Shown here piece after piece: positions 29,253 through 47,189 of a stretch of DNA of 64,000 bases. A model generated the notes under the pieces. That model was not told the origin of the DNA, ran no database searches, and worked only from the letters and a program-made list of their open reading frames with translations. Every line of letters begins with the position of its first letter. Within the stretch, counting starts at the first letter, position 1. Location: assembly GCA_965227515.1 (NCBI GenBank), contig CBDDFZ010000002.1, positions 384,001 through 448,000 of the forward strand, in the 5' to 3' direction. The stretch is from Alphaproteobacteria bacterium (lineage in GTDB: Bacteria > Pseudomonadota > Alphaproteobacteria > CALKHQ01). A program made the position numbers and the translations under genes.

Positions 29253-30347
29253 CTACGCCAACGCCTCCACCGGGGTGAAATCCATGTCGAGGCCGAACGG
29301 GCGCGGGCCGAACACCGCCAGTGCCTCCGGCGTGCGCATGATCGGCGGCACGCTCACCCCCATCACCGCGACCCGCTGGCCATAGCGCAGGTACTCCGTC
29401 GTGATCGCCTCGCCGGTCTCTGCGTCCAGCACGCAGATCAGGTCGGGCACCATGGCCTTCGCCGCGCCGTCGATGGTGGCGAGCAGGTTTTCGTTCTGGA
29501 ACCGGATCAGCATTTCGCCCGACCAGTCGTCGAGGCCGGCGATCCGCGCCTCGCCAATGGCGAACCCGTGCCTGGTCGCGCGGTCGACGTCGACCAGCTT
29601 GCCGCGAAACAGCACCCGGGCGTGGGCGTAGTGGGTGCGCGAAAAGGCGTCGATCATGGCGGCGAACACGTCCTCGTGCGCCGTGCGTGCCTCGCGCATG
29701 CGCCGCCCGAGGCCAAGCGTTAGGCTGACGGTGTTCGGCACCGAGACCCGGCGGGCGGTGGCGCCGTCCATGGCGTATTCGGCAATCGAGGTCTGGCCGC
29801 CCATGCGGATGGTGACCCCGCGCGCAATCCATTCCGCCATTTGCGCGCGGTCGGACTCCACGACGACGCTGTCGCCCCATTCGTTGACGATGACGACGGG
29901 CGCCGCCGGTACGCCATAGACGTTGAAGGTCTCCATCTGGAGCTCGGGGAAGGCGCGGCCCATGCCGTCGGCATCCACCACCGGCAGACCGCGCTGGGCG
30001 GCGATCAGCAGCGGCAGGGTGGAGTTCACCCCGCCGGCCTCGAACGGGATGATGGCGTCGACCTCGCGGCCGAGCTCGCGCTCCAGCACCGCCAGCGCCT
30101 TGGCCGGCTCGGTGCCGTTGGGGATCTTCTCGATCAGCACCGTCGGCGCGCCCATGTTGCCGACCGTGACGATCAGCGCATCGTCGGCCAGTTCGTCGAG
30201 GCCGATCAGGTCGATGCCGCCGCTCTCGCGCATCGCCTCGGTCGCCAGCAGGCGGCCGACATAGGGGTCGCCGCCGCCGCCGGTGCCGAGCACCGCGGCA
30301 CCGCGGCACAGGTCCTCCAGATCGTCGACGGTGATGCGGGTGGGCAT
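29253..30347 (-). CDS. DUF917 family protein (copy 1)
   Basis: GAAVLGTGGGGDP, GAPTVLIEK, PFEAGGVNS, DADGMGRAFPELQM, FQNENL, PDLICVLD, LRYGQRV. Confidence 0.9.
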   Translation of the reverse strand: MPTRITVDDLEDLCRGAAVLGTGGGGDPYVGRLLATEAMRESGGIDLIGLDELADDALIVTVGNMGAPTVLIEKIPNGTEPAKALAVLERELGREVDAIIPFEAGGVNSTLPLLIAAQRGLPVVDADGMGRAFPELQMETFNVYGVPAAPVVIVNEWGDSVVVESDRAQMAEWIARGVTIRMGGQTSIAEYAMDGATARRVSVPNTVSLTLGLGRRMREARTAHEDVFAAMIDAFSRTHYAHARVLFRGKLVDVDRATRHGFAIGEARIAGLDDWSGEMLIRFQNENLLATIDGAAKAMVPDLICVLDAETGEAITTEYLRYGQRVAVMGVSVPPIMRTPEALAVFGPRPFGLDMDFTPVEALA

Positions 30348-30359
30348 TCAGTTACCAAC

Positions 30360-30446
30360 CGTCATGGTCGGGCTTGTCCCGACCATCCACGACTTTCGTC
30401 AGCCGTTGCCAAGACGTGGATGCCCGCAACGAGTGCGGGCATGACG
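30360..30446. repeat. CGTCATG-family palindromic repeat between two DUF917 genes
   Basis: CGTCATGGTCGGGCTTGTCCCGACCATCCACG ... CGTGGATGCCCGCAACGAGTGCGGGCATGACG. Confidence 0.85.
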
Positions 30447-30479
30447 AAGGAGGTTTAGCCGCAAAACGATGAGCGACCA

Positions 30480-31571
30480 TCACCCCATCTGCTCGATGGG
30501 GGTGAACAGTGCGTCGATGCCGAAGCCGACCGGGCCGAAGATCGCCAGCGCCTCGGGCGTGCGCATAATAGGCGGCACCGCGACACCCATCACCGTGACG
30601 CGCTGGCCGTAGCGCAGGGTCTCGGTGGTGATCGGCTCGGCGGTCTCGGAATCCATGATGCAGATCAGGTCGGGCACGATGGCCTTCAGCTCGCCGTCGA
30701 CCCGGGCCGTCAGGTTCTCGTTCTGGATCTCGATCTCCATGATGCCCGGCCACTCGTCCAGGCCCTGGATCTTGCACAGCCCGGCGGCGAACCCGGCGCG
30801 CGTCTCGCGGAAGATGTCGACGATCTTGCCGCGATAGATGATCTTGCCGAACGAGTAGGGCGTCTGCGGCAGCAGGTCGAGCAATGCCTGGAACGGGTTG
30901 ATGTGGCCCTGCCGTGCCTCGCGGATGCAGCGCCCGATCTTCAGCGCCAGGGTCAGCGTGTTGGGCACCGACGTGCGCCGTACTTCCTCGCCGGTCATCG
31001 CGTACTCGGCGATGTAGGCGGCACCGCCCATGCGGATGGCGACCCCGCGCGCGATCCATTCCATCATCTTGTTGTCGCGGGTCTCGACCAGCGTGCAGTC
31101 GCCATACTCGTTGGTGATCGCCATCGGCGTGCCAGAGACGCCGTAGACCGCGAAGGTCTCCATCTGCAGTTCCGGGAAGGCGCGGCCCATGCCGTCGGCA
31201 TCAACCACCGGCAGGCCCAGGCGGGCGCCGACCACCAGCGGCATGGTCGAATTGATGCCGCCGATCTCGATCGGCATGGTGGCGAACGCCTTCTTGCCCA
31301 GGTGGCGCTCCAGGCGCTGCAACGACTTCACCGCCTCGTCGCCGCGCGGAATCTTTTCCACCAGCACGGTCGGCGCGCCCATCATCGCGGTCGGCAGCAC
31401 CAGCGCGTCCTCCGGCACCTCCGACGGGTCGATGATGGTGACCGGCCCGGACTCGTCCATGGCGTGCTCCACCATCAGCCGGCCGATATAAGGGTCGCCG
31501 CCGCCGCCGGTGCCCAGGAACGCCGCCCCGCGGCACAGGTCTTTCAGGTCTTCGCGATCAAGTTCGAACAT
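30480..31571 (-). CDS. DUF917 family protein (copy 2)
   Basis: GAAFLGTGGGGDP, PIEIGGINS, DADGMGRAFPELQM, QNENL, LRYGQRV. Confidence 0.9.
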   Translation of the reverse strand: MFELDREDLKDLCRGAAFLGTGGGGDPYIGRLMVEHAMDESGPVTIIDPSEVPEDALVLPTAMMGAPTVLVEKIPRGDEAVKSLQRLERHLGKKAFATMPIEIGGINSTMPLVVGARLGLPVVDADGMGRAFPELQMETFAVYGVSGTPMAITNEYGDCTLVETRDNKMMEWIARGVAIRMGGAAYIAEYAMTGEEVRRTSVPNTLTLALKIGRCIREARQGHINPFQALLDLLPQTPYSFGKIIYRGKIVDIFRETRAGFAAGLCKIQGLDEWPGIMEIEIQNENLTARVDGELKAIVPDLICIMDSETAEPITTETLRYGQRVTVMGVAVPPIMRTPEALAIFGPVGFGIDALFTPIEQMG

Positions 31572-31589
31572 GCTGCTTGCCTCCCTGAC

Positions 31590-33131
31590 CTAGTTCATCG
31601 CCAGGTCGCCGACCGCCTTCACCCGGATGCGGGTGGCGGACGACGGCAGGTAGGCGAGCGGCACTTCCTCGATGTCGACGATCTGCACGCTGTCGGCGAT
31701 CGCGCCGGCCTCCACCGCCTTTTCGGTGGCCTCCTGCTTGGCCTGGCCGAGCGCCTGGTCGCGGCCGAGGCCTTCCAGCGAGAAGATGCGGTCGACCTCG
31801 CCGCCGACCTGGGCGATGGCGGCCCCGATGGCGTTGGCGACCGAGGCGTGGTCGGGCTTGACGATCTCCGACGCCGCCGGCAGGTCGCGCGAGACCAGGA
31901 TCGAGCCGCCGCCGACCAGGATGACGGGCAGGGCCTCCGCACTGGTCTTCATCCGGTCGACCGCCTCGTCGACCATGCGGTGCATGGTGGCGATGGCGGT
32001 TTCGACCACATCCGCCTTGAGGTGAGCCACGCGGCTGCGGTCGCCGATGTCCTCCAGCCCCGCAGCCACCACGATATCGGTGGTGGTCAGTATGTCGCCG
32101 CCGAACACCAGCGCCTTTTCGGTCAGCTCGTAGCCCACCGAATCCGGGCCGATGCGGGCCCCGTCGTCGCGCACCAGGCTGCCGCCGCCGAGCCCTATCG
32201 CCAGCACGTCGGGCATGCGGAAATTGGTCCGCACCCCGCCGATGTCGACCGCGACCGCGCTTTCGCGCGGGAAGCCGTGCAGCAGCATGCCGACGTCGGA
32301 CGTCGTGCCGCCGATATCGACCACCATTGCCTCCTTCGCCTTGGCCAGGAAGGCGGCACCGCGCATGGAATTGGTCGGCCCGGACGCGAAGGTCAGCACC
32401 GGGTAGCGCGCCACGTGGTCGGCGGTCATCAGGGTGCCGTCGTTCTGGCTGATGTAGAAGGGTGCCGTGATCTTCAACTGGTCGAGGGCGGAGCGGAAGC
32501 TGTCGACCACCCGGCTCGCCAGGTCGGCCAGGCAGGCGTTCATGATGGTGGCGTTCTCGCGCTCCAGGAAGCCGACGCGGCCGATCTCGTGGCTGACCGA
32601 AATGGCGATGTCCGGCAGCTCCTGCTGCAGGATCTCGGCCGCCCGTTGCTCCATCTCGTTCTTCACCGGCGAGAACACGGAGGTGACGGCGGCGGCGCGC
32701 AGCCCCTTCGCCTTGATATCCTTTGCCGCGTCCTTCAGCGCCTGCTCGTCGAGCGGCGCGATCTCGCGGCCGTCGAACTCGTTGCCGCCGTGGATCAGAT
32801 AGCGATGGCGGCCCAGCGTGTCGGCGAGGTCGGCCGGCCAGTCGACCATCGGCGGCAGGCCCTTGGTCGCCGGCAGGCCGAGCCGCACCGCCGCCACCTC
32901 CAGCAGGCGCCGCCGCTCCACCACCGCGTTGGTGAAATGGGTGGTGCCGATCATCACCGCCTGGATGTCGGCCGGCGCGACGCTGCTTTCGTCAAGGACG
33001 GTCTTCAGGGCCGCCATGATGCCGCCCGACACGTCCGCCGTCGTCGGTGTCTTGTGAGCCGCGACGACCGTCAGCCCATCCATCAGCACGGCGTCGGTGT
33101 TGGTGCCGCCGACGTCAATTCCCACGCGCAT
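31590..33131 (-). CDS. Hydantoinase/oxoprolinase A-type protein, short form (copy 1)
   Basis: MRVGIDVGGTNTDAV, IGTTHFTNA, ERENATIMNA, QNDGT, SGPTNSMRGA, DIGGTTSDVG, ANAIGAA; 513 aa. Confidence 0.92.
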   Translation of the reverse strand: MRVGIDVGGTNTDAVLMDGLTVVAAHKTPTTADVSGGIMAALKTVLDESSVAPADIQAVMIGTTHFTNAVVERRRLLEVAAVRLGLPATKGLPPMVDWPADLADTLGRHRYLIHGGNEFDGREIAPLDEQALKDAAKDIKAKGLRAAAVTSVFSPVKNEMEQRAAEILQQELPDIAISVSHEIGRVGFLERENATIMNACLADLASRVVDSFRSALDQLKITAPFYISQNDGTLMTADHVARYPVLTFASGPTNSMRGAAFLAKAKEAMVVDIGGTTSDVGMLLHGFPRESAVAVDIGGVRTNFRMPDVLAIGLGGGSLVRDDGARIGPDSVGYELTEKALVFGGDILTTTDIVVAAGLEDIGDRSRVAHLKADVVETAIATMHRMVDEAVDRMKTSAEALPVILVGGGSILVSRDLPAASEIVKPDHASVANAIGAAIAQVGGEVDRIFSLEGLGRDQALGQAKQEATEKAVEAGAIADSVQIVDIEEVPLAYLPSSATRIRVKAVGDLAMN

Positions 33132-33162
33132 GTTCGTTCCGCTTGTTTGGTGTGAAGAAGGC

Positions 33163-33248
33163 GTAGCCCGGGTGAAACGTAGTGGAACCCGGGGATGACA
33201 AGATTGCGATGGTCGATCCCGGGTTCCGCTGTGCTCCACCCGGGCTAC
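33163..33248. repeat. GTAG-family REP doublet
   Basis: GTAGCCCGGGTGAAACGTAGTGGAACCCGGG ... CCCGGGTTCCGCTGTGCTCCACCCGGGCTAC. Confidence 0.85.
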
Positions 33249-33263
33249 AATTCCGTGACGGCA

Positions 33264-34337
33264 TCACTCGACCAGCAGGGCAGTGCCGTCGGCCGGCCAG
33301 GCGACCGCGACCTCGGTGCCGTCGGCCAGCACCGCGCGGTCGGAGCGGTTGGGCGTCTCGGCGACCAGGGTCTGGCCGTCGATATCGAACCGGTAGCGGA
33401 TGACCGCCCCCTGATAGGTGTGGTCCATCACCCGCGCGGTGATGCGGTTGGCGCCAGTAGCCGCATCCGCCTCGACGCCGACGAGCACGCGCTCGGGGCG
33501 GATCACCAGCGCCACCGCCGCGCCGGGGCCGAGGCCGTCCTGGTGCATGGCGCCGATGGTGTGGCCGCCGATGGCGAGCTGGCAGTCGGCGCCGTCGACG
33601 GCCTGGACGGTGGCGTTCAGGATGTTGGACTCACCGATGAACTCGGTGACGAACCGGCTGGCCGGGTGCTCGTAGATCTCCTGCGGCGAGCCGATCTGCG
33701 CCACCGCGCCCTTGTTCATCACCGCGATCCGGTCGGACATGGTCAGCGCCTCGCCCTGGTCGTGGGTGACGTAAAGGGTGGTGATCTTCAGTTCGCGCTG
33801 CAGGTTCTTGATCCAGTACTTCATCTCCTCGCGCAGCTTCTTGTCGAGCGCGCTCAGGGGCTCGTCGAGCAACAGGATCTTCGGCTCGGTGATCAGCACG
33901 CGCGCCAACGCCACGCGCTGCTGCTCGCCGCCGGAAAGCTCGCGCTGGTAGCGGCGCTCGTAGCCGGCCAGGCCGACCTGTTCCAGCGCCGCCGCAACCC
34001 GCCTGGCGATCTCCGGCGCAGGCGCGCGGCGCAGCTTCAGCCCGAAGGCGATGTTGTCGAACACGTTCATGTGCGGGAAGATCGCGTAGTTCTGGAACAC
34101 GATCCCGATGCCGCGCTTTTCCGGCGGCATGAACGTCAGGTCGGTGCCGCCGATTAGGATCGCGCCCGTCGTCGGCTGCACGAAGCCCGCGATCATGCGC
34201 AAGGTGGTGGTCTTGCCGCAGCCGGACGGGCCGAGCAGCGAGAAGAACTCGCCCTCCTCAACGCGCAGGCTGGTCGGCGTCAGGGCGACATTGTCGCCGT
34301 AGGTCTTCGACAGCTCGACGATTTCGACGTCAGACAA
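33264..34337 (-). CDS. PotA-like ABC ATP-binding protein
   Basis: GPSGCGKTT, VFQNYAIFPHM, LSGGEQQRVALAR, DEPLSALD, TOBE-like C-terminus. Confidence 0.93.
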   Translation of the reverse strand: MSDVEIVELSKTYGDNVALTPTSLRVEEGEFFSLLGPSGCGKTTTLRMIAGFVQPTTGAILIGGTDLTFMPPEKRGIGIVFQNYAIFPHMNVFDNIAFGLKLRRAPAPEIARRVAAALEQVGLAGYERRYQRELSGGEQQRVALARVLITEPKILLLDEPLSALDKKLREEMKYWIKNLQRELKITTLYVTHDQGEALTMSDRIAVMNKGAVAQIGSPQEIYEHPASRFVTEFIGESNILNATVQAVDGADCQLAIGGHTIGAMHQDGLGPGAAVALVIRPERVLVGVEADAATGANRITARVMDHTYQGAVIRYRFDIDGQTLVAETPNRSDRAVLADGTEVAVAWPADGTALLVE

Positions 34338-34399
34338 GTTTCATGCCTCGACTACCCATATTGCGGCCCTCTCGCGCGGCCGTTCATCGTAACCACCAC

Positions 34400-34490
34400 C
34401 GTCATGCCCGCACTTGTTGCGGGCATCCACGTCTTGTTGGCGGCCTAAGCCGCCATCTCGTGGATGGTCGGGACAAGCCCGACCATGACG
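34400..34490. repeat. CGTCATG-family palindromic repeat downstream of a binding-protein gene
   Basis: CGTCATGCCCGCACTTGTTGCGGGCATCCACG ... CGTGGATGGTCGGGACAAGCCCGACCATGACG (inverted relative to the 30360 copy). Confidence 0.85.
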
Positions 34491-34524
34491 ATTGTGATGG
34501 TGGCAACACTTCGCGTCGTTACGA

Positions 34525-35670
34525 TCACCCGGCGAAGATGTCGTTCACCGTCTCGACGATCTCGTCCTCGTTTTCCAGCCACCAGTTCCAGTCCGGGATC
34601 CACAGGCCCTCGACCGCGTCGGCGGTGTTCTCCACGCCGTGCGGCACCAGGTTCTCGTGCACCGCGGCCTCGCTGTGGGTCGGGCGCAGGTAGAACACGC
34701 CGTCGAACTTGGTGATGAACTCCGGATCCAGGCGCCGGTTCAACAACGCCATCGCCAGCCGCTTCTGCATCGGGTCGGAATACCGGCTCAGCGTCTGGGT
34801 CTGGGTCAGGATCGGCTTGTACTGCGACCACATATACGGTGCCACCGGCACGCCGGCCTCCTGCTGCATGTAGACCTCACCGTCCACGTGCACGCCGATG
34901 GTGGCCTCGCCACGCTCGATCAGGGTCGACATATTGCCGGTGAAGTCGGAGATCTTCATCGGCATCGCGCGTTCCATCGCGTCCAGGCCGGCCGCCATGT
35001 CCTGCTGGCTCTCGCCGAAGACGGCGTTGGCGGTCATGAAGAAGGCCATGAACAGCGTGTTGGAGGTGATGTAGGTGGCGCGCTTGTCGGCGTACTGGTC
35101 CTGCCAGAAATCCTCGAACGAGGTCGGCGCCGGGTCGGCCAGGTCGGTGCGGTAGGAATAGCAATAGCGGCCGAACGCCCAGGTGATGCCGACGCCGTTG
35201 TCCAGCGCGAACGGCCACACGCCGCCGGCGTTGGGCACGTTGGCGATCACCTCTTCCTGCGACAGGAAATAGTCGCCCGCGCCCGCGGTCTTGTACATCT
35301 CCGGCAGGTTCCAGTTGGTCGACGCATAGGGCGGGTCTTCCGGCCCGCCGGCGACGAATTTCGGGAACCACGGCCACGTGCTGTCGTATTCGACCGTGCA
35401 GTTGAAGTCGCGCTCGAAGTCGTTGATCAGCAGCTCGCGGATGTTCTCTTCCCAGAAGCCGCCCCACTCGGCGATCGGCAGGGTCGCGCCCTCGGCGTCG
35501 AACACCTCGCCGTCGTAGTGGACGTCCTGGCTCCAGGCGTGGTTGATGTTGAACAGATGCACGCCGGCCGCCGCGGCGCCCGCACCCGCCAGCACATTAC
35601 GACGGCTGACGCCCTTGGTCGTTCCAGGCAGGATCAACCCGCTGTCTCCGATACCTTTCTTTTTGGCCAT
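34525..35670 (-). CDS. PotD/PotF-like extracellular solute-binding protein with Tat signal
   Basis: SRRNVL Tat motif; WGG..E, YRTD...PTSFEDFW; position within an ABC operon. Confidence 0.85.
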   Translation of the reverse strand: MAKKKGIGDSGLILPGTTKGVSRRNVLAGAGAAAAGVHLFNINHAWSQDVHYDGEVFDAEGATLPIAEWGGFWEENIRELLINDFERDFNCTVEYDSTWPWFPKFVAGGPEDPPYASTNWNLPEMYKTAGAGDYFLSQEEVIANVPNAGGVWPFALDNGVGITWAFGRYCYSYRTDLADPAPTSFEDFWQDQYADKRATYITSNTLFMAFFMTANAVFGESQQDMAAGLDAMERAMPMKISDFTGNMSTLIERGEATIGVHVDGEVYMQQEAGVPVAPYMWSQYKPILTQTQTLSRYSDPMQKRLAMALLNRRLDPEFITKFDGVFYLRPTHSEAAVHENLVPHGVENTADAVEGLWIPDWNWWLENEDEIVETVNDIFAG

Positions 35671-35742
35671 GTGTCGAACTCCCTCTGGGTTGCGGTTGGC
35701 GCACGGACCGGCCGCGACGTGCGGCGGCCCCAAATCGGGTCG

Positions 35743-36597
35743 TCAGCTGAACTTGATTCCCCCGAATTTCCGAATGTTGACGAGCTTGGCGGTGATCAGC
35801 ATCGAGATCACCACCAGCGCGATGGCGAAGATGCCGGCGGCGGCGGCCGTCGGCTCGAACTTGTAGCGAAGCGACACATACAGCGCGATCGGCAGCGGCT
35901 CCAGGTTCGGCGTGCTGAGGAACAGCGACACCTCGAACTGGCCGAACGACACGATGAACGCGAAGATCGACCCGGCCATGATGCCGGCCGAAATGTTGGG
36001 CAGCGTGACCTTGCGGAACGCGGTCCAGGGGCCGGCGCCCAGGCTGCGCGCAGCCTCCTCCAGCGAGGTGTCGAAGGTGACGAGTGCCGCCGACACGGTG
36101 CCGATGACGTAGGGGGTGGTCACCAGCACGTGGCCGATCACCAGCCCCGGTAGCGTGCGCGCCAGCCCGATGCCGGAGGAGACATAGAACACGTAGAGCG
36201 CCAGCCCCAGCACCACGCCGGGCAGGATCAGCGGCGACAGGAAATAGGCGCGCAACAGGTCGCGGCCGCGGAAGCGCGCGCGGGCCAGCACGATGGCGGC
36301 CATGGTGCCGAGGACGGTGGAGATCACCATGGTGATCAGCGCCAGCAGCAGGCTGAAAAGATAGGCGCCCATCCAGGTGTCGGAGGACAGGAACTCCTCC
36401 ACCCAGCGCAGCGACAGCCCGTCGGGCGGGAAGCTGAGATACTCGCCGGAGTTCAGCCCGGCCAGCACCACGATCACCACCGGCAGCAGCAGCACGATCA
36501 GCGCGATGACGGCGCCAATCTTCAGCGCCAGCGGCACCTGCGCTTCCGACCACTTGCGCGCGCCATTGCGCTGCAGGGTAGATGCCAGGTTAGCCAT
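35743..36597 (-). CDS. PotC-like ABC permease
   Basis: FPPDGLSLRW, SPLILPGVV, LEEAARSLGA, FAFIVSFGQF. Confidence 0.92.
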   Translation of the reverse strand: MANLASTLQRNGARKWSEAQVPLALKIGAVIALIVLLLPVVIVVLAGLNSGEYLSFPPDGLSLRWVEEFLSSDTWMGAYLFSLLLALITMVISTVLGTMAAIVLARARFRGRDLLRAYFLSPLILPGVVLGLALYVFYVSSGIGLARTLPGLVIGHVLVTTPYVIGTVSAALVTFDTSLEEAARSLGAGPWTAFRKVTLPNISAGIMAGSIFAFIVSFGQFEVSLFLSTPNLEPLPIALYVSLRYKFEPTAAAAGIFAIALVVISMLITAKLVNIRKFGGIKFS

Positions 36598-37512
36598 CTA
36601 CGTGCGCCCCCCTGCGGTGCTGGCGGCATAGCGCTGGTAGATCACCACCGCGACCACGCTGGTGGCGAACAGCACCACCGCGATGGCGGCGCCGAACTGC
36701 CATTTCCCCAGCTCGGCGATCTGCTGGTAGATGTGGATCGGCATCAGCACCACCTTCCAGCCGCCCATCAGCGCCGGCACCACGTATGAGCTGATGGAGA
36801 TCGCGAACACCAGCAGCGATCCGGCCAGGATGCCCGGCATCGACAGCGGAAAGACGATGCGCCAGAACGCGGTCCAGCGGTTGGCGCCCAGGCTGCGCGC
36901 CGCTTCCTCCAGCGACGGGTTGATCGAGCGGATGACGCCGATTAGCGACAGCACCATGAACGGCAGGGTGAACTGCACCAGGCCGACCACCACGCCGAAG
37001 AAGTTGTACATCAGCGGCATCGGCTCCTCGATCAGGCCGATGTCCTGGAGGGCGACGTTGATGATGCCGTTGTCGCCCATCAGCACCATCAGGCCGTAGA
37101 GCCGGATCACCATGTCGAGCTGCATCGCGCACAGCACCAGGATCATCAGGAAGGTGTTGCGCCCCGGGTGCTCGGTCTTGGCGATCAGGAACGCCAGCGG
37201 ATAGCCGAGGATGAGGGTGACGATGGCGACCAGGCTGGCCATGCCGATGGAGCGCACCGCCGCCCAGTAGTAGGTGCCGCGCGAGAAGAAGCGGGCGAAA
37301 TTGTCGAGCGAGAAATCGCCCTGCGGCGCCACCACGCCGGTGGCGGGCTTGTCGATCGAGATCAGGAACAGCGACAGCACCGGCAGGATGAAGAAGATCA
37401 GGAAGAACACGAACGCCGGCAGCACCAGCCAGAACGACCTGTTGCCGCCCATGAAGGTGCGCATGCCGCGCCCGAAGCCGCCCAGCGCCACCCTGTCGGT
37501 CGCCGCGGTCAC
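36598..37512 (-). CDS. PotB-like ABC permease
   Basis: LGYPLAF, GIIN..L, LPFMVL, LEEAARSLGA, PALMGG. Confidence 0.92.
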   Translation of the reverse strand: MTAATDRVALGGFGRGMRTFMGGNRSFWLVLPAFVFFLIFFILPVLSLFLISIDKPATGVVAPQGDFSLDNFARFFSRGTYYWAAVRSIGMASLVAIVTLILGYPLAFLIAKTEHPGRNTFLMILVLCAMQLDMVIRLYGLMVLMGDNGIINVALQDIGLIEEPMPLMYNFFGVVVGLVQFTLPFMVLSLIGVIRSINPSLEEAARSLGANRWTAFWRIVFPLSMPGILAGSLLVFAISISSYVVPALMGGWKVVLMPIHIYQQIAELGKWQFGAAIAVVLFATSVVAVVIYQRYAASTAGGRT

Positions 37513-37557: not shown

Positions 37558-38322
37558 CTATTCGGCCGCCTGGCGCGCTGGCGTCAGCGCGGGCATGTCA
37601 TAGCCGACCACCGGCTTCGGCGGCGGCGGCTGGAACGCGATGCGGCTGTGGCTGAGCCCGGTGTCGATCAACGCGCCCGCCATGCGCACGGCCGCCGGCA
37701 CCGGATCGATCACCGGAATGTCGTAGCCCCTGGCGAGCAGTCCGTCGCGGACCGCCTCGGCACAGCCCAGCATGCCGGTGCAGCCGAAGATGATGGCGTC
37801 GGCGCCGTCTTCCTCCACCGCCAGCAGGGCCTGCTCGGTCAGCGTGCGCTGGGTGCCCGCGATGTCGTTCTCCAGCGCCAGCACCGGGATGTCGACGGCG
37901 CGGGTCGACGCGTACTTGTCGGCGCAGCCATAGACCTTGGCCTGGTTCTCGATCATCACGTTGATGCGCCGGAGCACGGTGACGACGCTGAACTTGTGGC
38001 CCAGCATCGCGGCCAGGTGCATGGCGGTCTCGCACGGCCCCAGCACCGGGATCGACACGCACTCGCGCCCGGGCTTCAGGCCGGGGTCGCCCATGCAGTC
38101 GATGATCACCGCCTGGGCGCCGTCGCGCTCGGCCTCGATGATCTTGGCCACGGTGTCGGGCACCGCCAGCATCTCGTCGTATTCGCATTCGATGGAGGCG
38201 GGCCCGCGGTCGATCTCGACGTGGCTGATGGTCGTGTCCGGGCCGACCAGACCGTCGAAATCGCTCGCCTTGCGGAACCCATGGGTGGTGATCGGCGTGA
38301 CGACGCGAATGTGCTTGCTCAT
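37558..38322 (-). CDS. Asp/Glu/hydantoin racemase family protein (hydantoin/allantoin racemase-like)
   Basis: GPASIE, AVIIDCMGDPG and AIIFGCTGM (two catalytic Cys), PVIDP. Confidence 0.9.
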   Translation of the reverse strand: MSKHIRVVTPITTHGFRKASDFDGLVGPDTTISHVEIDRGPASIECEYDEMLAVPDTVAKIIEAERDGAQAVIIDCMGDPGLKPGRECVSIPVLGPCETAMHLAAMLGHKFSVVTVLRRINVMIENQAKVYGCADKYASTRAVDIPVLALENDIAGTQRTLTEQALLAVEEDGADAIIFGCTGMLGCAEAVRDGLLARGYDIPVIDPVPAAVRMAGALIDTGLSHSRIAFQPPPPKPVVGYDMPALTPARQAAE

Positions 38323-38446
38323 GGCGTGCTCCCCGAAATCGCTGCCTGGCCAGACAGGTCGCCCAAACATGCGGCGCAAACCCGGCTGGGCGTCTAGCGC
38401 CCGGTCGGTCCACCCCCTGACCCGCACGCATGCAAGTTCAAGTGCA

Positions 38447-38463
38447 CGCAATTGCCATGCCAG
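38447..38463 (-). promoter_or_regulatory. Sigma-54 (-24/-12) promoter
   Basis: Minus strand CTGGCATGGCAATTGCG matches TGGCA-N6-TTGC with exact GG-N10-GC spacing, 125 nt upstream of the racemase ATG. Confidence 0.75.
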
Positions 38464-39346: not shown

Positions 39347-39350
<4 letters not shown>

Positions 39351-40426: not shown

Positions 40427-40530
40427 TTCAGTCCGTGTTCAAACGAGGTCGAAGTTGGATGGGGCCAGTGTAACGCGACACCGGGCGCCGTTGGCGCCCG
40501 GTGCCATTATCGCAAGGACGGCAAAGCTGC

Positions 40531-41514
40531 CTAGCGCAAGCCCTGCTCGGAGAGCGTGCGCAGCGCCGGCACGTCGCCCGGCACGATCAACGACTTGCCC
40601 GTGTTCACATCCCAGGCGCCAAGCTCATACTTGCTCATCAGGTAGAGCTGCATGATCGGCAGGAAGCCTTGCAGGAACGGCTGCTGGTCGACGGTGACCT
40701 GGATGTAGCCCGACTCCATCTCGTCGAACACCACCGGCAACAGGTCGAAGCCGCCCAGCAGGATCTCGCCCGGGCCATAGCCCAGGTCGCGCAGGCCGAC
40801 GGCCGCACCGGCGTGCCAGTAGCCGGCATCGAAATAGGCGGTCAGGTCCGGGTTGCCCTGCACATAGGCGCTGACACGCTGCTGGGTGAGCGCCAGGTCG
40901 AGGCCGGAATCGATCCGTTCCCAGGTCACTTCGCGGTCTGCGTTCGCCGCCGCGTAGTCCTCCATGAAGCGCGCCACGCCGGCCATCCGCTGTTCCGCCC
41001 AGCTCTGGCCGGGGCCGGAGACGCCGAGTAGCACGGAGATCGGACCGTCGGCGGGGAAGTGCTCGGACAGGCCCTTGGCGAGGTCGTAGCCGGCCTGCTC
41101 CAGGTCCTGGCCGACGAAGCTCAGGCGGCTGTTGCCGTCCTCGCCCATGGTGTCGTCGACGTTGGAACCGAGCACCGGGATGCCCAGGTCGTTGGCGCGC
41201 TGCACCGCCTCGTCGAAGATGTCGTCGTTGACCAGCGTGGTGATGATGCCGTCCGGCTCGTTGGCGATGGTCGCTTCCAGGTTGGCCAACTGCTCGTTCA
41301 GATTGCCGTCCTGGTTCAGGAAGATCATCTGACACTCGGCGTTGATCATCGCACACGCCTCGTCCATGCCGTTCTTGACGGCCTGCCAGAACACGTTACC
41401 GGTCGACGAGTGCATGATGTAGGTGAACTGCAACGGGTCGTCCTGGGCTTGGGCGCCGGTAGCACCCATGGCACTGACAATGGCGACGGTCGCCAACAGC
41501 TTGCTCTTGGACAT
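40531..41514 (-). CDS. Sugar ABC substrate-binding protein (RbsB-like)
   Basis: Signal peptide; FWQAVKNG, PDGII, FVGQD, GGFDL, TVDQQPFLQG. Confidence 0.9.
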   Translation of the reverse strand: MSKSKLLATVAIVSAMGATGAQAQDDPLQFTYIMHSSTGNVFWQAVKNGMDEACAMINAECQMIFLNQDGNLNEQLANLEATIANEPDGIITTLVNDDIFDEAVQRANDLGIPVLGSNVDDTMGEDGNSRLSFVGQDLEQAGYDLAKGLSEHFPADGPISVLLGVSGPGQSWAEQRMAGVARFMEDYAAANADREVTWERIDSGLDLALTQQRVSAYVQGNPDLTAYFDAGYWHAGAAVGLRDLGYGPGEILLGGFDLLPVVFDEMESGYIQVTVDQQPFLQGFLPIMQLYLMSKYELGAWDVNTGKSLIVPGDVPALRTLSEQGLR

Positions 41515-41641
41515 TTGACTTCCTCCCCTGTTTTGGAGCCGGTCGCGGGCACCGCCCGGTGCGATCGCGCCAACCGAACTGCCGCGACCCTAATCGCTAT
41601 GGCGGGCATTGGCAAAACCAAAGCCCGTGCGCAGCCACGCA

Positions 41642-42976
41642 CTAGCGTTTGTGGCCGATCGCCAACGCCACCAGCATCAACACGAGGGCCGGCACGGTCT
41701 TGACCATCGCCCCCAACGGGTCGAGCCACAGAGCGGGCAGCAGGACCAGCGATCCCAGCAGGTAGCCGGCCGACAGCAGGATGCCGGCCATCAGCCCGAG
41801 GCGGCTGGTGCGCTGCCACGCGATGGCAATGCCGATCGCCACGTCGGCCAGGCCGGTGACGACTGTCAGCACCGAGGCGGCGCCAGGGCCGATGCCGGCG
41901 GCTTGCAGCACTTGGGACGCTGCCTCGAACGACACCGTCAGCGCGATAAGACCGCTGACGATCCAGAACAACGACAGGACCACCAGGACCAGCGCCTTGA
42001 GGAGGTAGAGGCGGGCGAACCACTTCTCCTGCACGCCGAACGGCAGCCGCGCCAATGAGGTCGCCAGCGGCGTCGGCGCGATGCCGGTGGCGTCGATCCA
42101 GGGTTGGGGATCGCCGGCGACACCGCGCCGCATCTCGGCCAGCGCCGTGCTGCGGATCGGCGGCGACCAACCGAGGTGGCCCGCCACGTCGCCCGCCCGC
42201 GCGCCCAGCGCCATCAGCGGTCCGGGAAGACGGAAGAGGGGGCGCGGCCCGCCGATCCGCTGCCGCATCGCCGCCAGCACGTCGCCGACGGTGCCGGCCT
42301 CGCGCTCCATCACGTCCCAGGCCACGCGCCAATCGCGGCGGCCGTCCCGCCATGACTTGGCCAGGAAGGCGACCGTGCGCGCCAGGTCGTCGATATCGGT
42401 CGCGGCGAACGGCTGGCCGGCTTCGCGGCGCGGCAAGTCCACCGCCAGCGCCGCCAGCGCGCGCATCAGCGCGCTGCCGCCATAGGCCACCGGCGCTAAT
42501 ACGAACCCGGGCCGCAGGATCGCGTGCGCCACGGGACTTGCCGCGATCGCTGCCTCGGCCGAACGTTTGGTGCGGGCGAAATCGGTGCGGTCCTCGTCGG
42601 GATCGCCGGGGATGGAGACGTGCACCAGCAGGGCATCGCGCGCGCCCAGAGCCTGGACCAGGCGGGCGACGAACGCGTGATGCACGTCCTCCGCGCCGCC
42701 GCCTGGGCCGTCCTGCAACACGCCGAGGCAATTGACCACGATGTCGGCGCGATGGGTGTCGAGGAGCGCGCCCAGGTCGTCGGCGCCCAGGTCTTCGAAG
42801 CCGAGGTCGACGACCGGTGCCTCGACGGCCTCGAAAAGGCCGGCCCGTTGTGCGGCATCGAACCGGCGTGCAATCCCGACCACATCGAACGATTCTTGCG
42901 CCAGCAGGTTGGCCAGCGCGCCGCCGATCAGGCCCGACGCCCCCAGGATGACAATGCGTGGGTCCGCGCCTTCCAT
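41642..42976 (-). CDS. NAD(P)-binding SDR/epimerase-like protein with C-terminal DoxX-like membrane domain
   Basis: ILGASGLIG, VVNCLGVLQD, ILRPGFV; C-terminal TM helices with WLDPLGAMVKT. Confidence 0.8.
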   Translation of the reverse strand: MEGADPRIVILGASGLIGGALANLLAQESFDVVGIARRFDAAQRAGLFEAVEAPVVDLGFEDLGADDLGALLDTHRADIVVNCLGVLQDGPGGGAEDVHHAFVARLVQALGARDALLVHVSIPGDPDEDRTDFARTKRSAEAAIAASPVAHAILRPGFVLAPVAYGGSALMRALAALAVDLPRREAGQPFAATDIDDLARTVAFLAKSWRDGRRDWRVAWDVMEREAGTVGDVLAAMRQRIGGPRPLFRLPGPLMALGARAGDVAGHLGWSPPIRSTALAEMRRGVAGDPQPWIDATGIAPTPLATSLARLPFGVQEKWFARLYLLKALVLVVLSLFWIVSGLIALTVSFEAASQVLQAAGIGPGAASVLTVVTGLADVAIGIAIAWQRTSRLGLMAGILLSAGYLLGSLVLLPALWLDPLGAMVKTVPALVLMLVALAIGHKR

Positions 42977-42983
42977 GCCGGTC

Positions 42984-43454
42984 TCAGAAATAGGGCTTGG
43001 CGACCATCAGCCAGACGATCGCGATGACGGACGAGAAGCCGGGAATGCCGAACAGGAACCACAGGCGAAACAGGCGCCGATAGGCGTCGGGCAGGTCGGT
43101 CCCCGCCGCCACGGCCTGCCGCGCCAGGGTGCGCATGCGCGCCTGCAGCCAGACCACCGGCACCCAGAACACGCCGGCCAGCACATAGAGGCCCAGCGAT
43201 ATCAGAATCCAGTCGTCGGTCAGCGACAGGCCCATCTCGCGCACCAGCAGATAGCCGGTGATCGGCTGGGCGATGACCGATGTGGTGGTGAACAGCCAGT
43301 CGGCCAGCACCACCACCGAGGCGGTGCGCGCGATGAATGCCGGATCGCGGCTGAGGTGGGCCATCAGCATGAAGAAGGCGATGCCGGTGCCGGTGCCCAG
43401 CACGACGATGGCGCCCATGACGTGCAGGAACTTCAGGATCAAGTACGCCGTCAT
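42984..43454 (-). CDS. DUF2269 family integral membrane protein
   Basis: LKFLHVMGA..GTGTGIAFF, ADWLFT, QPITG, WVPVVWLQ, WLMVAKP. Confidence 0.85.
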   Translation of the reverse strand: MTAYLILKFLHVMGAIVVLGTGTGIAFFMLMAHLSRDPAFIARTASVVVLADWLFTTTSVIAQPITGYLLVREMGLSLTDDWILISLGLYVLAGVFWVPVVWLQARMRTLARQAVAAGTDLPDAYRRLFRLWFLFGIPGFSSVIAIVWLMVAKPYF

Positions 43455-43478
43455 GTTCCGGACGTACCCTTGCGGACC

Positions 43479-44225
43479 TTATTTCCGATCCAGGAACGAG
43501 CGGTAGAAGCCGGCGATCTCCTCCACCGCTAGGTCGAACAGCCGCTTGCCGTCCTCCGGTGTCGACATGCCGGGCGCCGAGCCGATGCGCCCGTCGGGGA
43601 AACGGCGGCGATAGTCCTCGGCGTCGGCGAAGCCGTCCATAGGCGCCACTTCCGGGTCGATTGGTGCTGTCTTGATGGCGTCGGGGAAGGCGTATTGCGT
43701 GACCGACACCTCCGATGGCGTGGCGTGCATGCCCTCCTTGCGGCCATAGAGCTGGTTGCGGAGCTGGGTGACCTTGCGCCCCTCCCACCAGTTGACCATC
43801 CGGCACATCACCGGGGCGGCGTTGCCCGGCCCGGCGAGGCTCGATTGGGCATAGACCTCCGAGAAGGCGGCGTTGACGGTGGCGATGTTGCCGCCGTGGC
43901 CATTGACGAAGAAGAAGCGGTCGAAGCCGTTGCGCGACAGCGAGTTGATCCAGTCGCACAGCGCCGCGATCATCGTTGTAGGCCTGAGCGTGATCGAGCC
44001 GGGAAACGCCAGGTGATGCTGGGCCATGCCGACGCTGAAGGTCGGTGCCACCAGCGCGTTCGCCGCCTCGCCGACGCCGCGCGCGATCACCTCCGCGCAC
44101 AGGGCATCTGTGCCGACCAGGCCGTTCGGGCCGTGCTGCTCGGTCGAGCCGATGGGGATGATGATCCCTGTCGACCGCTTCAGATAGTCCTCGACCTCGG
44201 CCCAGGTCTGCATGTGCAATTGCAT
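43479..44225 (-). CDS. Creatininase family amidohydrolase
   Basis: PIGSTEQHGP..GTD, FPGSITL, VNGHGGN, MHA..SE metal ligands; start 44225 or 44234. Confidence 0.9.
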   Translation of the reverse strand: MQLHMQTWAEVEDYLKRSTGIIIPIGSTEQHGPNGLVGTDALCAEVIARGVGEAANALVAPTFSVGMAQHHLAFPGSITLRPTTMIAALCDWINSLSRNGFDRFFFVNGHGGNIATVNAAFSEVYAQSSLAGPGNAAPVMCRMVNWWEGRKVTQLRNQLYGRKEGMHATPSEVSVTQYAFPDAIKTAPIDPEVAPMDGFADAEDYRRRFPDGRIGSAPGMSTPEDGKRLFDLAVEEIAGFYRSFLDRK

Positions 44226-44257
44226 CGCGCTCACTCAATGTTGCCGCAGAAGTAGTT

Positions 44258-44510
44258 TTGTCGTCTTCGCCCTTGTGGCTTCGAGCTTCACACATTTCTC
44301 GAAGGGTGGCTCGATCTCCGAGGCAGAAAGATACTGTCGTCCTCGCCCTTGTGGCGAGGACCCATTGATGGCCAGAGCGTCAATAGGTCATTGCGGAGCG
44401 CTATGCGGGGTGGCAGCCGCCCGGTTTCAAATGGCCAAACATGCCGGCGTCTATTGGCATCGGCCCAGTGTGCCCCGCAAATGGGCCCTCGCGACAAGCG
44501 CGAGGGCGAC
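44258..44510. repeat. REP/MITE-like element (same family as 26131) plus an upstream truncated arm
   Basis: TGTCGTCCTCGCCCTTGTGGCGAGGACCCAT (44335) ... ATGGGCCCTCGCGACAAGCGCGAGGGCGAC; partial arm at 44258-44279. Confidence 0.8.
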
Positions 44511-44537
44511 GAGAGAGCATATGCGGACGCTGCATGA

Positions 44538-45629
44538 TCAACCAAGCTCCTCCAGCGGCACGTAGTCCATGTCGACACCGAACACGCGCGGGCCCCAGAC
44601 CGCCAGCGCCTCGGGCGTGCGCATCACTGGCGGCACACTGATCGCCATCACCTTGACGCGCTGGCCGTAGCGCAGGCCGTCAGTTGTGATCGGCTCGGCG
44701 GTCTCGCGGTCCAGCACGCAGACCAGGTCGGGCGCCATCGCCAGCGTCCGGCCCTCCAGTTGCACGTGCAGATACTCGTTCTGGAATGCGATATCCATCC
44801 GCTGGCCGCCGCCGTCCAGCGCCTCCAGGATCAGCCGGCCGACCGCGAACCCGCGCGTGGTCTCGCGCAGCAGGTCGACCACCTTGCCGTCGAACAGCAC
44901 CCGGCTGTGGCGCGGCGGGTCGGCGGCGGCGAAGAAGCCTTCCAGCGCCGCGAACGGGTCGCCGTGGGCGGCGCGCGCCTGGCCGATCACCTGGCCGATC
45001 TCGATCGCAAGCGAGATGGTGCGGTGCACCGATTTGGTCTTCGCGTCGCGGCCGCGCATGGGATAGAGCGTGATTTCCGCCTTACCGCCCATGCGGATGC
45101 ACACCACGCGGGCCAGCCACTCCGCGGTCTCGTTGTCGACCGCATTGACCACCACCTCATTCAGGTGCTCGTCCTTGATCACCACCGGGCTGCCGGGAAT
45201 GCCGTAGATGCCGAACGTGGTCATCTGCAATTCAGGGAAGGCGCGGCCCATGCCGTCGGCGTCGACCACCGGCAGGTCCATCAGCGCGCCGACGACACAG
45301 GGCAGGGTGGCGTTGATGCCGCCGGCCTCGATCGGCATCACCGCCGCTGCCTTCTCGCCGGCGATTTCCTCGGCCCGGCGCACGGCGGAGACCGCAGCGT
45401 CGCCGCTGGGGAAGCGCTCGACCAGCACCGTGGGCGCGCCCATGTTGGCGACCGGGATGACCAGGGCGTCGTCGTCCAGGTCGTTGGGGTCGATCAGGCG
45501 CACCCGCTTTCCGCCGGCGAGCTGCTGCTGCAGGATCAGGCGGCCGACATAGGGGTCGCCGCCGCCGCCGGTGCCCAGGAAGGCGGCGCCGCGCGCGAAA
45601 TCGTGCAGGCTGTCGAGGGTCAGGTCCAT
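44538..45629 (-). CDS. DUF917 family protein (copy 3)
   Basis: GAAFLGTGGGGDP, PIEAGGINA, DADGMGRAFPELQM, FQNEYL, LRYGQRV. Confidence 0.9.
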   Translation of the reverse strand: MDLTLDSLHDFARGAAFLGTGGGGDPYVGRLILQQQLAGGKRVRLIDPNDLDDDALVIPVANMGAPTVLVERFPSGDAAVSAVRRAEEIAGEKAAAVMPIEAGGINATLPCVVGALMDLPVVDADGMGRAFPELQMTTFGIYGIPGSPVVIKDEHLNEVVVNAVDNETAEWLARVVCIRMGGKAEITLYPMRGRDAKTKSVHRTISLAIEIGQVIGQARAAHGDPFAALEGFFAAADPPRHSRVLFDGKVVDLLRETTRGFAVGRLILEALDGGGQRMDIAFQNEYLHVQLEGRTLAMAPDLVCVLDRETAEPITTDGLRYGQRVKVMAISVPPVMRTPEALAVWGPRVFGVDMDYVPLEELG

Positions 45630-45641
45630 GGCGTTTTCCCC

Positions 45642-47189
45642 CTATTCTGCCGCGCCGGCAAGGTCGCCGACCGCCTTCACCCGCACCCGGACCGCGCCGC
45701 CGGGCAGGTAGGTCAGCGGCACCTCGTCGACCTCGATGATGCGCACCGAGCCGGCGGCCGCACCCGCCGCCACCGCGCGGTCGGTGGCCTCCTGCTTGGC
45801 CTCGTCGAGGGCGGCCTCGCGCCCCTTGGCATCGAACGAGAACACGCGGTCGATCTCGCCGCCGACCTGGGCGATGGCGGCCCCGATGGCATTGGCGACG
45901 CCGGCATGCTCCGGCCGGTCGATGCGCTCGGCGCCGGACAGGTCGCGGTCGACCAGCACGCCGCCACCGCCGACCAGCACCACCGGCACCGGCGCCGCGC
46001 TGGTCTTCATCCGGTCGATGCCTTCCTCCAGCATGGCGTGGATGCGGTCCATGCCGGCCTTCACGGTTGCCGGCTCCAGTCCGCCGACGCGTGTGGCGTC
46101 GCCGATATCCGCCGCGCCGGAGGCGACCGCCAGATCGGTTGCGGTCAGCACGTCGCCGCCAAAGACGCGGGCTTTCTCTGTCAACTCGAAGCCGACGGAG
46201 TCCGGACCGACGCGTGCGCCGTCGTCGCGCACATGGCTGCCGCCGCCGAGCCCGATGGCGAGCACGTCGGGCATGCGGAAATTGGTCTTCACCCCGCCGA
46301 CGTCGACCGCGATGGCGGACTCGCGCGGGAAACCCTGGGTCAGCACGCCGATGTCGGTGGTGGTGCCGCCGATATCGACCACCACCGCCTCCTCCAGCCC
46401 GGAGAGGTAGGCCGCGCCGCGCATGGAATTGGTGGGGCCCGACGCGAACGTCAGCACCGGGAACTTCTCCACGAAGTCGGCGGTCATCAGCGTGCCGTCG
46501 TTCTGGCTGATGAAGAAGGGTGCTGTGACGCCGAGGTCCGTCAGCGCCCCACGGAACGCGCCAACCACCCGCGCCGACAGGTCCATCAGCGAGGCGTTCA
46601 TCACCGCCGCGTTCTCGCGCTCGACCATGCCGATGCGGCCTATCTCGCTCGACAGGGTGACGAACGCATCGGGGATCTCGTTGAGCACGATCTCCTCGAC
46701 CCGCTTTTCCATGTCGTTGTTCATCGGCGCAAACACCGAGCTGACCGCGACCGAGCGCAGGCCGCGCGCCTTGATGTCGGCGACGGCGGCCATGATTTCC
46801 TTCTCGTCGAGCGCGGAGATCTTGCGGCCGTCGAACTCGTAGCCGCCATGGGCCATGATGACGTGGTGGCCGACCTGGGCGACCAAATCCTGCGGCCAGT
46901 CGACCAGGGGCGGCAGGCTGGTGGTCGCCGGCAGCGCCAGCCGGATGATCGCGACCTCGATCAGGCGCCGCCGCTCGACGAAGGCGTTGGTGAACTGGGT
47001 GGTGCCGATCATCACGCTGTCCAGCGTGTCTGCGCCGACGCTCGTGCCGTCCAGCACGTTGCGCACGGCGGCGACGATGCCACCGCCCACGTCGGCGGTG
47101 GTCGGCGCCTTCACCGAGGCGACAACCTTGTCGCCGTCCATCAACACCGCATCGGTGTTGGTGCCGCCGACATCCACCCCGATCCGCAT
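45642..47189 (-). CDS. Hydantoinase/oxoprolinase A-type protein, short form (copy 2)
   Basis: MRIGVDVGGTNTDAV, ERENAA, SGPTNSMRGA, DIGGTTTDIG, ANAIGAA; 515 aa, colinear with copy 1. Confidence 0.92.
   Translation of the reverse strand: MRIGVDVGGTNTDAVLMDGDKVVASVKAPTTADVGGGIVAAVRNVLDGTSVGADTLDSVMIGTTQFTNAFVERRRLIEVAIIRLALPATTSLPPLVDWPQDLVAQVGHHVIMAHGGYEFDGRKISALDEKEIMAAVADIKARGLRSVAVSSVFAPMNNDMEKRVEEIVLNEIPDAFVTLSSEIGRIGMVERENAAVMNASLMDLSARVVGAFRGALTDLGVTAPFFISQNDGTLMTADFVEKFPVLTFASGPTNSMRGAAYLSGLEEAVVVDIGGTTTDIGVLTQGFPRESAIAVDVGGVKTNFRMPDVLAIGLGGGSHVRDDGARVGPDSVGFELTEKARVFGGDVLTATDLAVASGAADIGDATRVGGLEPATVKAGMDRIHAMLEEGIDRMKTSAAPVPVVLVGGGGVLVDRDLSGAERIDRPEHAGVANAIGAAIAQVGGEIDRVFSFDAKGREAALDEAKQEATDRAVAAGAAAGSVRIIEVDEVPLTYLPGGAVRVRVKAVGDLAGAAE

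Follow-up and report, generated by a model that had tools for sequence, protein, structure and literature searches.

The DNA analysed here, called the window below, is a stretch of 64,000 nucleotides (nt) from an alphaproteobacterial genome (Alphaproteobacteria bacterium, GTDB lineage CALKHQ01; assembly GCA_965227515.1, contig CBDDFZ010000002.1, positions 384,001 to 448,000). It carries two operons in which a gene for a short HyuA-like ATPase of the ASKHA type is directly followed by genes for DUF917 proteins. Operon 1 contains A1, D2 and D1, and operon 2 contains A2 and D3, where A denotes the short HyuA-like protein and D the DUF917 protein (Table 1). Computationally, the two kinds of protein are partners, and the partnership is independent of HyuB, the hydantoinase B subunit. 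Gene order, gene fusions, the lack of a spare HyuB and a predicted complex all agree with DUF917 as the partner of short A, as had been proposed in an earlier note that was made from the letters of the window alone.

The gene-level observations of that note were borne out. A1 and A2 have 513 and 515 residues, short of the full-length A subunits of HyuA/HyuB enzymes (about 690 residues, including the C-terminal domain), and both contain the actin-like ATPase motifs DVGGTNTD and DIGGTT. The start of A1 was placed, by alignment to A2 and 63 homologues, at M37 of a 549-residue open reading frame (ORF; 31590-33239, GTG start). The spacer from the A1 stop to the ATG of D2 is 18 nt and that from A2 to D3 is 12 nt, within the 12 to 18 nt noted before, with purine-rich, Shine-Dalgarno-like GGGAGG ahead of D2 and GGGGGAAAA ahead of D3; D2 and D1 are separated by 132 nt. 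GTGGGG, E-x-GG-x-N, DADGMGRAFPE and QNE are found in D1, D2 and D3, are largely invariant in 65-row alignments and may act as ligands, as the note had suggested. The window was said to lack hydantoinase B, and neither PF02538 (HyuB) nor tblastn with the HyuB domain gave a match in it.

Table 1. The two A-DUF917 operons and neighbouring genes (positions in the window)
Feature	Position	Strand	Basis
A1, short HyuA-like ASKHA ATPase, 513 residues	31590-33131	-	PF05378 + PF01968; 65% identity to A2; 884 bits on short-A profile
D2, DUF917 / S-Me-THD-like, 363 residues	30480-31571	-	PF06032 + PF20906
D1, second DUF917 paralogue, 364 residues	29253-30347	-	PF06032 + PF20906
A2, short HyuA-like ASKHA ATPase, 515 residues	45642-47189	-	PF05378 + PF01968; alignment to A1
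D3, DUF917 / S-Me-THD-like, 363 residues	44538-45629	-	PF06032 + PF20906; chain modelled in complex with A2
PotABCD-type importer 5' of A1: ATPase; binding protein; two permeases	33264-34337; 34525-35733; 35743-36597, 36598-37512	-	family matches
Asp/Glu/hydantoin racemase family gene	37558-38451	-	PF01177, E 3.2e-37
Liv/Urt-type importer 5' of A2 (47292-52376): LivF-like; LivG-like	47292-48005; 48002-48904	-	family matches
Liv/Urt-type importer of operon 2: two permeases; binding protein	48901-49887, 49880-50746; 50901-52376	-	family matches
Creatininase-family cyclic amidohydrolase	43479-44234	-	PF02633, E 3.1e-65
Nitroreductase-family gene, convergent on D1	27927-28925	+	family matches
Amidohydro_3 metallo-amidohydrolase, downstream on operon strand, start approximate	26337-27701	-	family matches

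Short HyuA and DUF917 proteins

Both A proteins match PF05378 (E 1.5e-42 for A1, 2.4e-38 for A2) and PF01968 (E 2.3e-30 and 5.3e-28) above the Pfam cut-offs, the PF01968 match spanning only profile positions 1-173 of 291. The phosphate-1 (DxGGTxTD) and phosphate-2 (DxGGT) motifs, as defined in the caprolactamase paper (PMC8453981), are represented by D6, G8, G9, T10, T12 and D13 and by D272, G274 and G275, respectively, all invariant across 65 short-A sequences. D6 and D272 are the counterparts of CapA D11 and D295, and mutation of these CapA residues is described as strongly reducing product formation in caprolactamase (PMC8453981). The A2 model (pLDDT 91.4) matches HyuA chains in a structure search with TMq of 0.64-0.77 (9h03, 5svb/5svc/5m45, 5l9w, 6yra), and 7hk5 is a PDB sequence match of short A (phmmer E 3.7e-31). 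Deletions in the short form were mapped by aligning A1 and A2 with six long HyuA proteins of the same genome. The GGG(G) adenosine loop is kept together with both phosphate motifs, and the lost parts are replaced by two conserved segments of short A's own, LPAT..LPP..VDWP and EFDGR.

DUF917 is now covered in Pfam by S-Me-THD-like N and C domains (PF06032 and PF20906), the names S-Me-THD_N and S-Me-THD_C being derived from the thiohydantoin and S-methyl thiohydantoin desulfurases of bacterial ergothioneine breakdown. D1, D2 and D3 match both domains in N-then-C order (E 3e-57 to 2.8e-64; 193-216 bits, cut-off 27), and are the only three DUF917 copies in their genome. The D3 model (pLDDT 92.6) has one clear structural match, 2o3i, with Z 41.2, a root-mean-square deviation of 2.3 Å over 341 aligned residues at 25% identity, and a Foldseek E of 5.1e-23. 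phmmer of D3 against the PDB likewise gave 2o3i alone (E 6.3e-19), and no solved thiohydantoin desulfurase was found in this way. A likeness of D3 to HyuB or to another hydrolase was looked for and rejected, as Foldseek on the PDB returned 2o3i only and wide VIA-align searching gave nothing else above Z 5.6. The weak structural matches left over are CobE/CbiG-like, to residues 52-197, and OB/Mop-like, to the C-terminal barrel.

In a FastTree phylogeny of 100 DUF917 domains, seven stand-alone sequences and one half of a DUF917-DUF917 tandem are split from the other 92 rows with SH-like support of 97. Nearly all rows on the 92-row side are adjacent or fused to A. Both sides have the GGGG loop, D123, R129-A130-x-P132, R174 and N284-E285 in common, and residues specific to the A-linked clade include E71, G104, N106, M127 and R255. 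D2 groups with the D gene directly after A in a Martelella locus (L025), and D1 with the D gene in second position in the A-D-D clusters of L014, L025, L028, L036 and L042.

Pairing across genomes and the predicted complex

Gene order was compared in 79 loci, the best of at least 568 DUF917 relatives in species-representative genomes (49-86% identity). They come mostly from Actinomycetota and Alphaproteobacteria, and also from Chloroflexota, Bacillota, Haloferax and an Acidilobaceae archaeon. In 69 of the loci D is immediately preceded on its own strand by a full-length short A, with a gap of -20 to 200 nt. The layouts of the linked loci are ADDD (33, and two more with A split over two frames), AD (18), ADD (12), DA (3) and others (8). 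Profiling of short A with DUF917, which the earlier note had called for, gives linkage in one cluster in 76/79 loci and fusion in 37 of the 45 DUF917 homologues longer than 636 residues, these 37 containing the HyuA domain PF01968.

The A-DUF917 fusions originate from green algae, a sea anemone, corals, molluscs, echinoderms, hemichordates, amphioxus, a flatworm and metagenomes. The C-terminal part of short A, detected with our own profiles, is kept in all 36 resolved fusions, of which 35 are A-then-D and one (P0006) is D-then-A. Since both orders occur, the fusion arose at least twice. Three further proteins of 689-770 residues (P0001, P0002 and P0003) are tandem DUF917-DUF917 fusions, and together with the common A-D-D layout they suggest an association between DUF917 paralogues. 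The two halves of P0003 fall in different clades, the N-terminal one with the stand-alone and the C-terminal one with the A-linked sequences.

Co-occurrence was examined in an even sample of the phylum, 300 genomes besides that of the window, with A2 residues 360-515 as a query specific to short A; in its own genome this query matches the two short A proteins only. PF06032 was found in 12 genomes and the short-A C-terminus in four, with one additional weak match (9.9e-4) inside a 3416-residue frame. Short A adjoins a close DUF917 in 4/4 of the positive genomes. At the remaining eight loci DUF917 is only distantly related and no HyuA-like gene lies within ~7 kb, and four of them, each equally free of such a gene over that distance, pass the NCBIfam model NF058529 for thiohydantoin desulfurase (592-603 bits, cut-off 440 bits). 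DUF917 of both kinds occurs together in one genome of the same class as that of the window (G168), with a stand-alone thiohydantoin desulfurase on contig C85 and, on contig C95, two short A genes that each adjoin a DUF917 gene.

The 5.5-Mb genome has HyuB (PF02538) at nine places, the nearest to the window, which starts at C2:384001, being C2:345826-347415. PF01968 is found at 11 places, of which nine are long forms (frames of 689-1231 residues, full profile) and two are the short forms. Eight HyuB adjoin a long HyuA, one of them as a fusion, and the orphans are one long HyuA (C1:2286912-2289011) and one HyuB (C1:2782972-2784549), about 0.5 Mb apart. Because the nine HyuB are balanced by nine long HyuA, no B is spare for short A; the cognate B subunit elsewhere in the genome that the earlier note named as contrary evidence was not found, every HyuB being matched in number by a long HyuA. 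Among ten other genomes with A-DUF917 that were searched, PF02538 has no match in six (G304, G305, G306, G307, G309 and G310), all six being of unreported completeness and two of them metagenome assemblies.

For complex prediction, which the earlier note had also called for, A2 and D3 were each supplied as a 65-row alignment. The pair reached an ipSAE of 0.80 in each of three runs, the best of three controls reaching 0.00. Solved complexes reach the score mark in 116 of 157 cases and mismatched pairs in 2 of 215, counts that are rough since our own alignments were used. Contact agreement among the A2-D3 runs was at least 92% and partner pLDDT at least 88. phmmer found no A-DUF917 complex in the PDB, so the result is not the recall of a solved structure. 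The prediction supports binding and does not show it. The predicted interface comprises A residues 87-97, 118-122, 152-153, 186-189, 292-293, 301, 392-397 and 492-501, with both of the segments peculiar to short A lying within it, and D residues 27-35, 64-77, 112, 154-155, 178-182, 249 and 318-324. The contact predicted to be tightest involves E71 of D, which is present in 92/92 A-linked and 0/8 stand-alone sequences.

Gene neighbourhood

Operon 1 runs from a ribose-type ATP-binding cassette (ABC) system through the racemase gene and the PotABCD-type importer to A1-D2-D1, with the convergent nitroreductase-family gene and the Amidohydro_3 gene beyond. In operon 2 the Liv/Urt-type importer is followed by A2, D3, a terminator-like hairpin and, about 300 nt 3' of D3, the creatininase-family gene. 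Homologues of the Pot-type binding protein lie beside A-D clusters in 10/79 loci and racemase homologues in 9/79, and the creatininase family is also present in the clusters of L045 and L056. For the Amidohydro_3, DUF2269 and epimerase/DoxX genes and the two operon-2 binding/permease genes no homologue turned up in the 79 loci, and they are probably outside any conserved unit.

The nitroreductase-family gene encodes 332 residues, with the family domain only in the C-terminal half (152-320) and the N-terminal half unassigned; its homologues directly follow D genes in L013 and L016. A relation to cyclodipeptide oxidase (CDO) was considered for this protein and rejected, since PF19585 (CDOB) gave no match even at E 10 and the protein cannot therefore be called cyclodipeptide-oxidase-like. 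According to a preprint, the surroundings of CDO-like genes are enriched in DUF917 (which it calls uncharacterised), hydantoin racemases and AroM (10.1101/2023.09.25.559410). From this statement on DUF917 and PF01177, a link between DUF917 and CDO may be taken as a lead.

Of 167 flanking ORFs picked in 37 loci, 80 were scanned; these belong to 22 of the 79 loci. Immediately 5' of A there is an NCS1 permease of the cytosine/purine/hydantoin type in 6/22 loci (L014, L018, L019, L038, L045 and L046), a Pot-type ABC system in 5/22 (L013, L016, L025, L028 and L030) and an Opp-type ABC system in 2/22 (L021 and L043). Other genes in the 22 loci encode PucR or MalT/LuxR regulators, amidohydrolases, an amidase and a creatininase. 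Similar arrangements appear in published data: CDR20291_1615-1617 of Clostridioides difficile are listed as permease, DUF917 and hydantoinase, co-regulated (PMC12915319), and Lacticaseibacillus rhamnosus has consecutive accessions for cytosine permease, DUF917 and hydantoinase/oxoprolinase (PMC7513527). The nearby transporters, racemase and amidohydrolases suggest that the substrate class is that of small cyclic amides or ureides imported into the cell, and the substrates of operons 1 and 2 probably differ.

Several non-coding elements accompany the two operons. The D2-D1 spacer (30348-30479) contains the GC-rich inverted repeats ATGCCCGC...GCGGGCAT and GTCGGG...CCCGAC, and the spacer after D3 (44235-44537) contains the GC-rich inverted repeat GCCCTCGCG...CGCGAGGGC and two copies of a CCACAAGGGCGA(G/A)GACGAC element. 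These sequences look like REP-type or terminator-like elements. The gap between the LivF-like gene and A2 (47190-47291, minus strand) has a 13-nt GGGTCTGGGCATC-like unit in three to four tandem copies just 5' of the A2 start. Elsewhere in the window, two long ORFs at 22747-24792 (plus strand) and 22939-24639 (minus strand) overlap and resemble each other in GC content by codon position, and the 566-residue product of the latter has no Pfam or NCBIfam match.

Interpretation and comparison with known systems

The reading preferred here, with a probability of roughly 0.6, is that A1 and A2 with D2/D1 and D3 are subunits of one HyuB-independent, ATP-dependent amidohydrolase; ATP use, hydrolysis and substrate class are what we infer for the pair. 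The ABC transporter of the operon would import a small cyclic amide or ureide, for example a hydantoin or a dihydropyrimidine-like or diketopiperazine-like compound. A would bind ATP via its ASKHA phosphate-1 and phosphate-2 motifs and activate the carbonyl of the ring; the activated form would most likely be an O-phospho-lactim, in line with proposals for caprolactamase and oxoprolinase. DUF917 would then add water and open the ring, taking the role of the metal-binding B subunit with an unrelated fold. That DUF917 is the catalytic part of the A-linked pair is plausible, since stand-alone DUF917 desulfurases occur with no nearby A gene. In the thiohydantoin and S-methyl thiohydantoin desulfurases, as NCBIfam names the stand-alone relatives, water replaces the sulfur leaving group on the hydantoin ring carbon. 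Stand-alone DUF917 enzymes would act on ring carbons with a good leaving group in place, and in the A-linked clade ATP would supply one. The O-phospho-lactim is the oxygen counterpart of the desulfurase substrate, which would explain why only the A-linked clade needs an ATPase.

A more specific version, which we hold tentatively and at less than even odds, describes A-linked DUF917 as an ATP-driven form of thiohydantoin-desulfurase chemistry. The O-phospho-lactim made by A (a phospho-isourea, oxygen counterpart of the S-methyl-isothiourea on which stand-alone DUF917 enzymes would act) would be ring-opened by a DUF917 homo- or hetero-oligomer, with a D-alpha/D-beta form corresponding to the conserved A-D-D layout and the D-D fusions. 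Such an enzyme would range from archaea to amphioxus and represent a second, convergent ATP-dependent lactam/ureide hydrolysis. Hydantoins, diketopiperazines and nucleobase-derived rings are substrate candidates in this case.

A number of observations weigh against the two-part enzyme. Among the 79 loci, which as top-scoring close relatives are a biased sample, three have no short A: L075, from a Thermomicrobiales metagenome-assembled genome (MAG), has D-D alone with no A-like gene in its flanks, and L026 and L031, both from Chloroflexota MAGs, have D-D and then a long HyuA, in L031 with a HyuB gene (5068-6729) following as well. P0007, a metagenomic protein of 954 residues, is a complete HyuB (6-527) fused to a complete DUF917 (605-946), so that DUF917 is also able to occur alongside A/B enzymes of the classical kind. 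The D domain of P0007 has as its sister a D gene of L079 that adjoins a short A, and the protein may reflect DUF917 working with classical HyuA/HyuB enzymes or an artefact of assembly or gene calling. The co-occurrence count in the 300-genome sample stands on four positive genomes only, and the DUF917 tree is an unrooted one made with FastTree only. The predicted interface shows no significant enrichment of D positions conserved in a clade-specific manner (4/21, hypergeometric p ~0.09).

The proteins themselves also add to these points. The adenosine motif GxxPGP, present as S/PAGxxPGP in the six long HyuA, is missing from A1 and A2, which have SVG(Y/F)ELTEK there, and short A is without about 170 C-terminal residues of HyuA and without the charged loop, which sits at the tunnel entrance according to the caprolactamase paper (PMC8453981). 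With these parts absent, nucleotide handling may differ from that of HyuA. The 65-row alignment of DUF917 contains no invariant His or Cys, and a metal site of the HyuB type (Asp-His-Asp-His) is accordingly absent. Foldseek and VIA-align detected no likeness of DUF917 to HyuB, and a missing structural match does not show that the two folds differ. Judged by sequence and model, DUF917 would be an analogue of B and no homologue of it. The searchable literature yielded no biochemical data on A-linked DUF917.

Four other explanations were weighed against the two-part enzyme. That A and DUF917 are separate consecutive enzymes of a pathway, for example an ASKHA kinase whose free phosphorylated intermediate is later hydrolysed by DUF917 with no obligate complex or coupling, is unlikely. 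ASKHA proteins are mostly kinases, sugar kinases are listed below the HyuA matches in the fold search with A, and sequential pathway enzymes also show operon adjacency and fusions. Against this stand the strict co-occurrence and tight gene spacing, the fusions in both orders, the confident complex prediction (0.80, best control 0.00) and the A-linked clade's own invariant E71 at the predicted contact. The existence of stand-alone DUF917 enzymes is in favour of separate enzymes, and the earlier note had counted a DUF917 fully active without A and ATP as contrary evidence. Stand-alone enzymes do exist, judged by NCBIfam names, in a separate clade lacking E71; this favours DUF917 as a catalytic domain and does not refute the pairing, and none of the three contrary outcomes named in the note was observed. 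The same names indicate that stand-alone DUF917 clades work without A, as would be expected if A were an ATP-dependent activase, chaperone or reactivase of DUF917 (cofactor or metal loading, or repair) that leaves the substrate untouched, like the ASKHA reactivases of radical enzymes. A has weak matches to PF13941 (MutL) and PF01869 (BcrAD_BadFG), both below the cut-offs, and the former covers only about 45 residues near phosphate-2 (285-331 of the 549-residue A1 ORF; 252-296 of A2). The closest structures of A are all substrate-phosphorylating HyuA subunits, and a one-to-one, single-chain fusion across many eukaryotes is unusual for an activase needed in catalytic amounts, which makes this explanation improbable.

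The fold of A is as close to the ATPase subunits of acetone and acetophenone carboxylases as to those of lactamases, and the pair might accordingly catalyse an ATP-dependent carboxylation, or some other non-hydrolytic reaction of that type, with DUF917 as the coupling part. Characterised DUF917 relatives are hydrolytic by NCBIfam names, the neighbouring genes are importers, a racemase and amidohydrolases and not genes of ketone metabolism, and no gamma-type small subunit was seen; there is little chance that a carboxylase is present. Least credible is that DUF917 is a mere neighbour and short A works with one of the HyuB proteins encoded at other places in the genome. One of the nine HyuB genes has no adjacent HyuA, and this orphan is matched in number by the orphan long HyuA. 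HyuB has no match in six of the ten other genomes with an A-DUF917 cluster, short A is without the C-terminal domain and loop of B-partnered HyuA, and adjacency, fusions and predicted complex all point to DUF917.

A literature search, with most subscription journals outside its scope, found no paper treating short HyuA and DUF917 as one enzyme, and the A-DUF917 fusion is already visible in automatic annotations. The pair would be a HyuA-type ATP-dependent enzyme with an unrelated catalytic partner in the place of B. The pairing extends over bacteria and archaea and reaches algae and many marine animals, where the two proteins are fused into one chain. Should the pair be an enzyme, it would account for a large unassigned piece of nitrogen-heterocycle catabolism, provide a second evolutionary solution to ATP-driven lactam/ureide opening and possibly yield mild biocatalysts for hydrolysing lactams, hydantoins or diketopiperazines. 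Most DUF917 members, and the many proteins with a "hydantoinase/oxoprolinase family protein" annotation that lack a B subunit, would thereby gain a function.

HyuA/HyuB enzymes are the textbook case of stable lactams and ureides (5-oxoproline, N-methylhydantoin, caprolactam) being opened at the expense of ATP. Like these enzymes (CapAB, 6YRA; N-methylhydantoinase, 7HK5 and 9H03; 5-oxoprolinase; the carboxylases 5SVB and 5L9W), A1 and A2 have the HyuA fold, keep DVGGTNTD and DIGGTT and are encoded beside a second, non-ATPase subunit, and by analogy the logic of ATP activation followed by hydrolysis is likely shared. Unlike them, the A protein is about 175 residues shorter, with no GxxPGP, charged loop or C-terminal domain, and the place of HyuB is taken by DUF917, which has an unrelated fold by the model and no Asp-His-Asp-His metal site.

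With the thiohydantoin desulfurases, D1-D3 share both Pfam domains and the core residues. They differ in score, D1 reaching 101.5/89.6 bits and D3 87.7/90.0 bits (these two were scanned) with NF058529 and NF058532, the latter being the S-methyl thiohydantoin desulfurase model, against cut-offs of 440/450 bits; no NF058529 match was found in the genome of the window at E 1e-30. The desulfurases are stand-alone genes, in contrast to the D genes that begin 12-18 nt after a short A, and they lie across the branch of support 97 and lack E71, G104, N106 and M127. CV_3147 of Chromobacterium violaceum (2O3I), a structural-genomics protein with no assigned function, has the same fold as D3 over the whole protein; it is distant by sequence (E 6.3e-19) and in the alignment is without the E71 motif.

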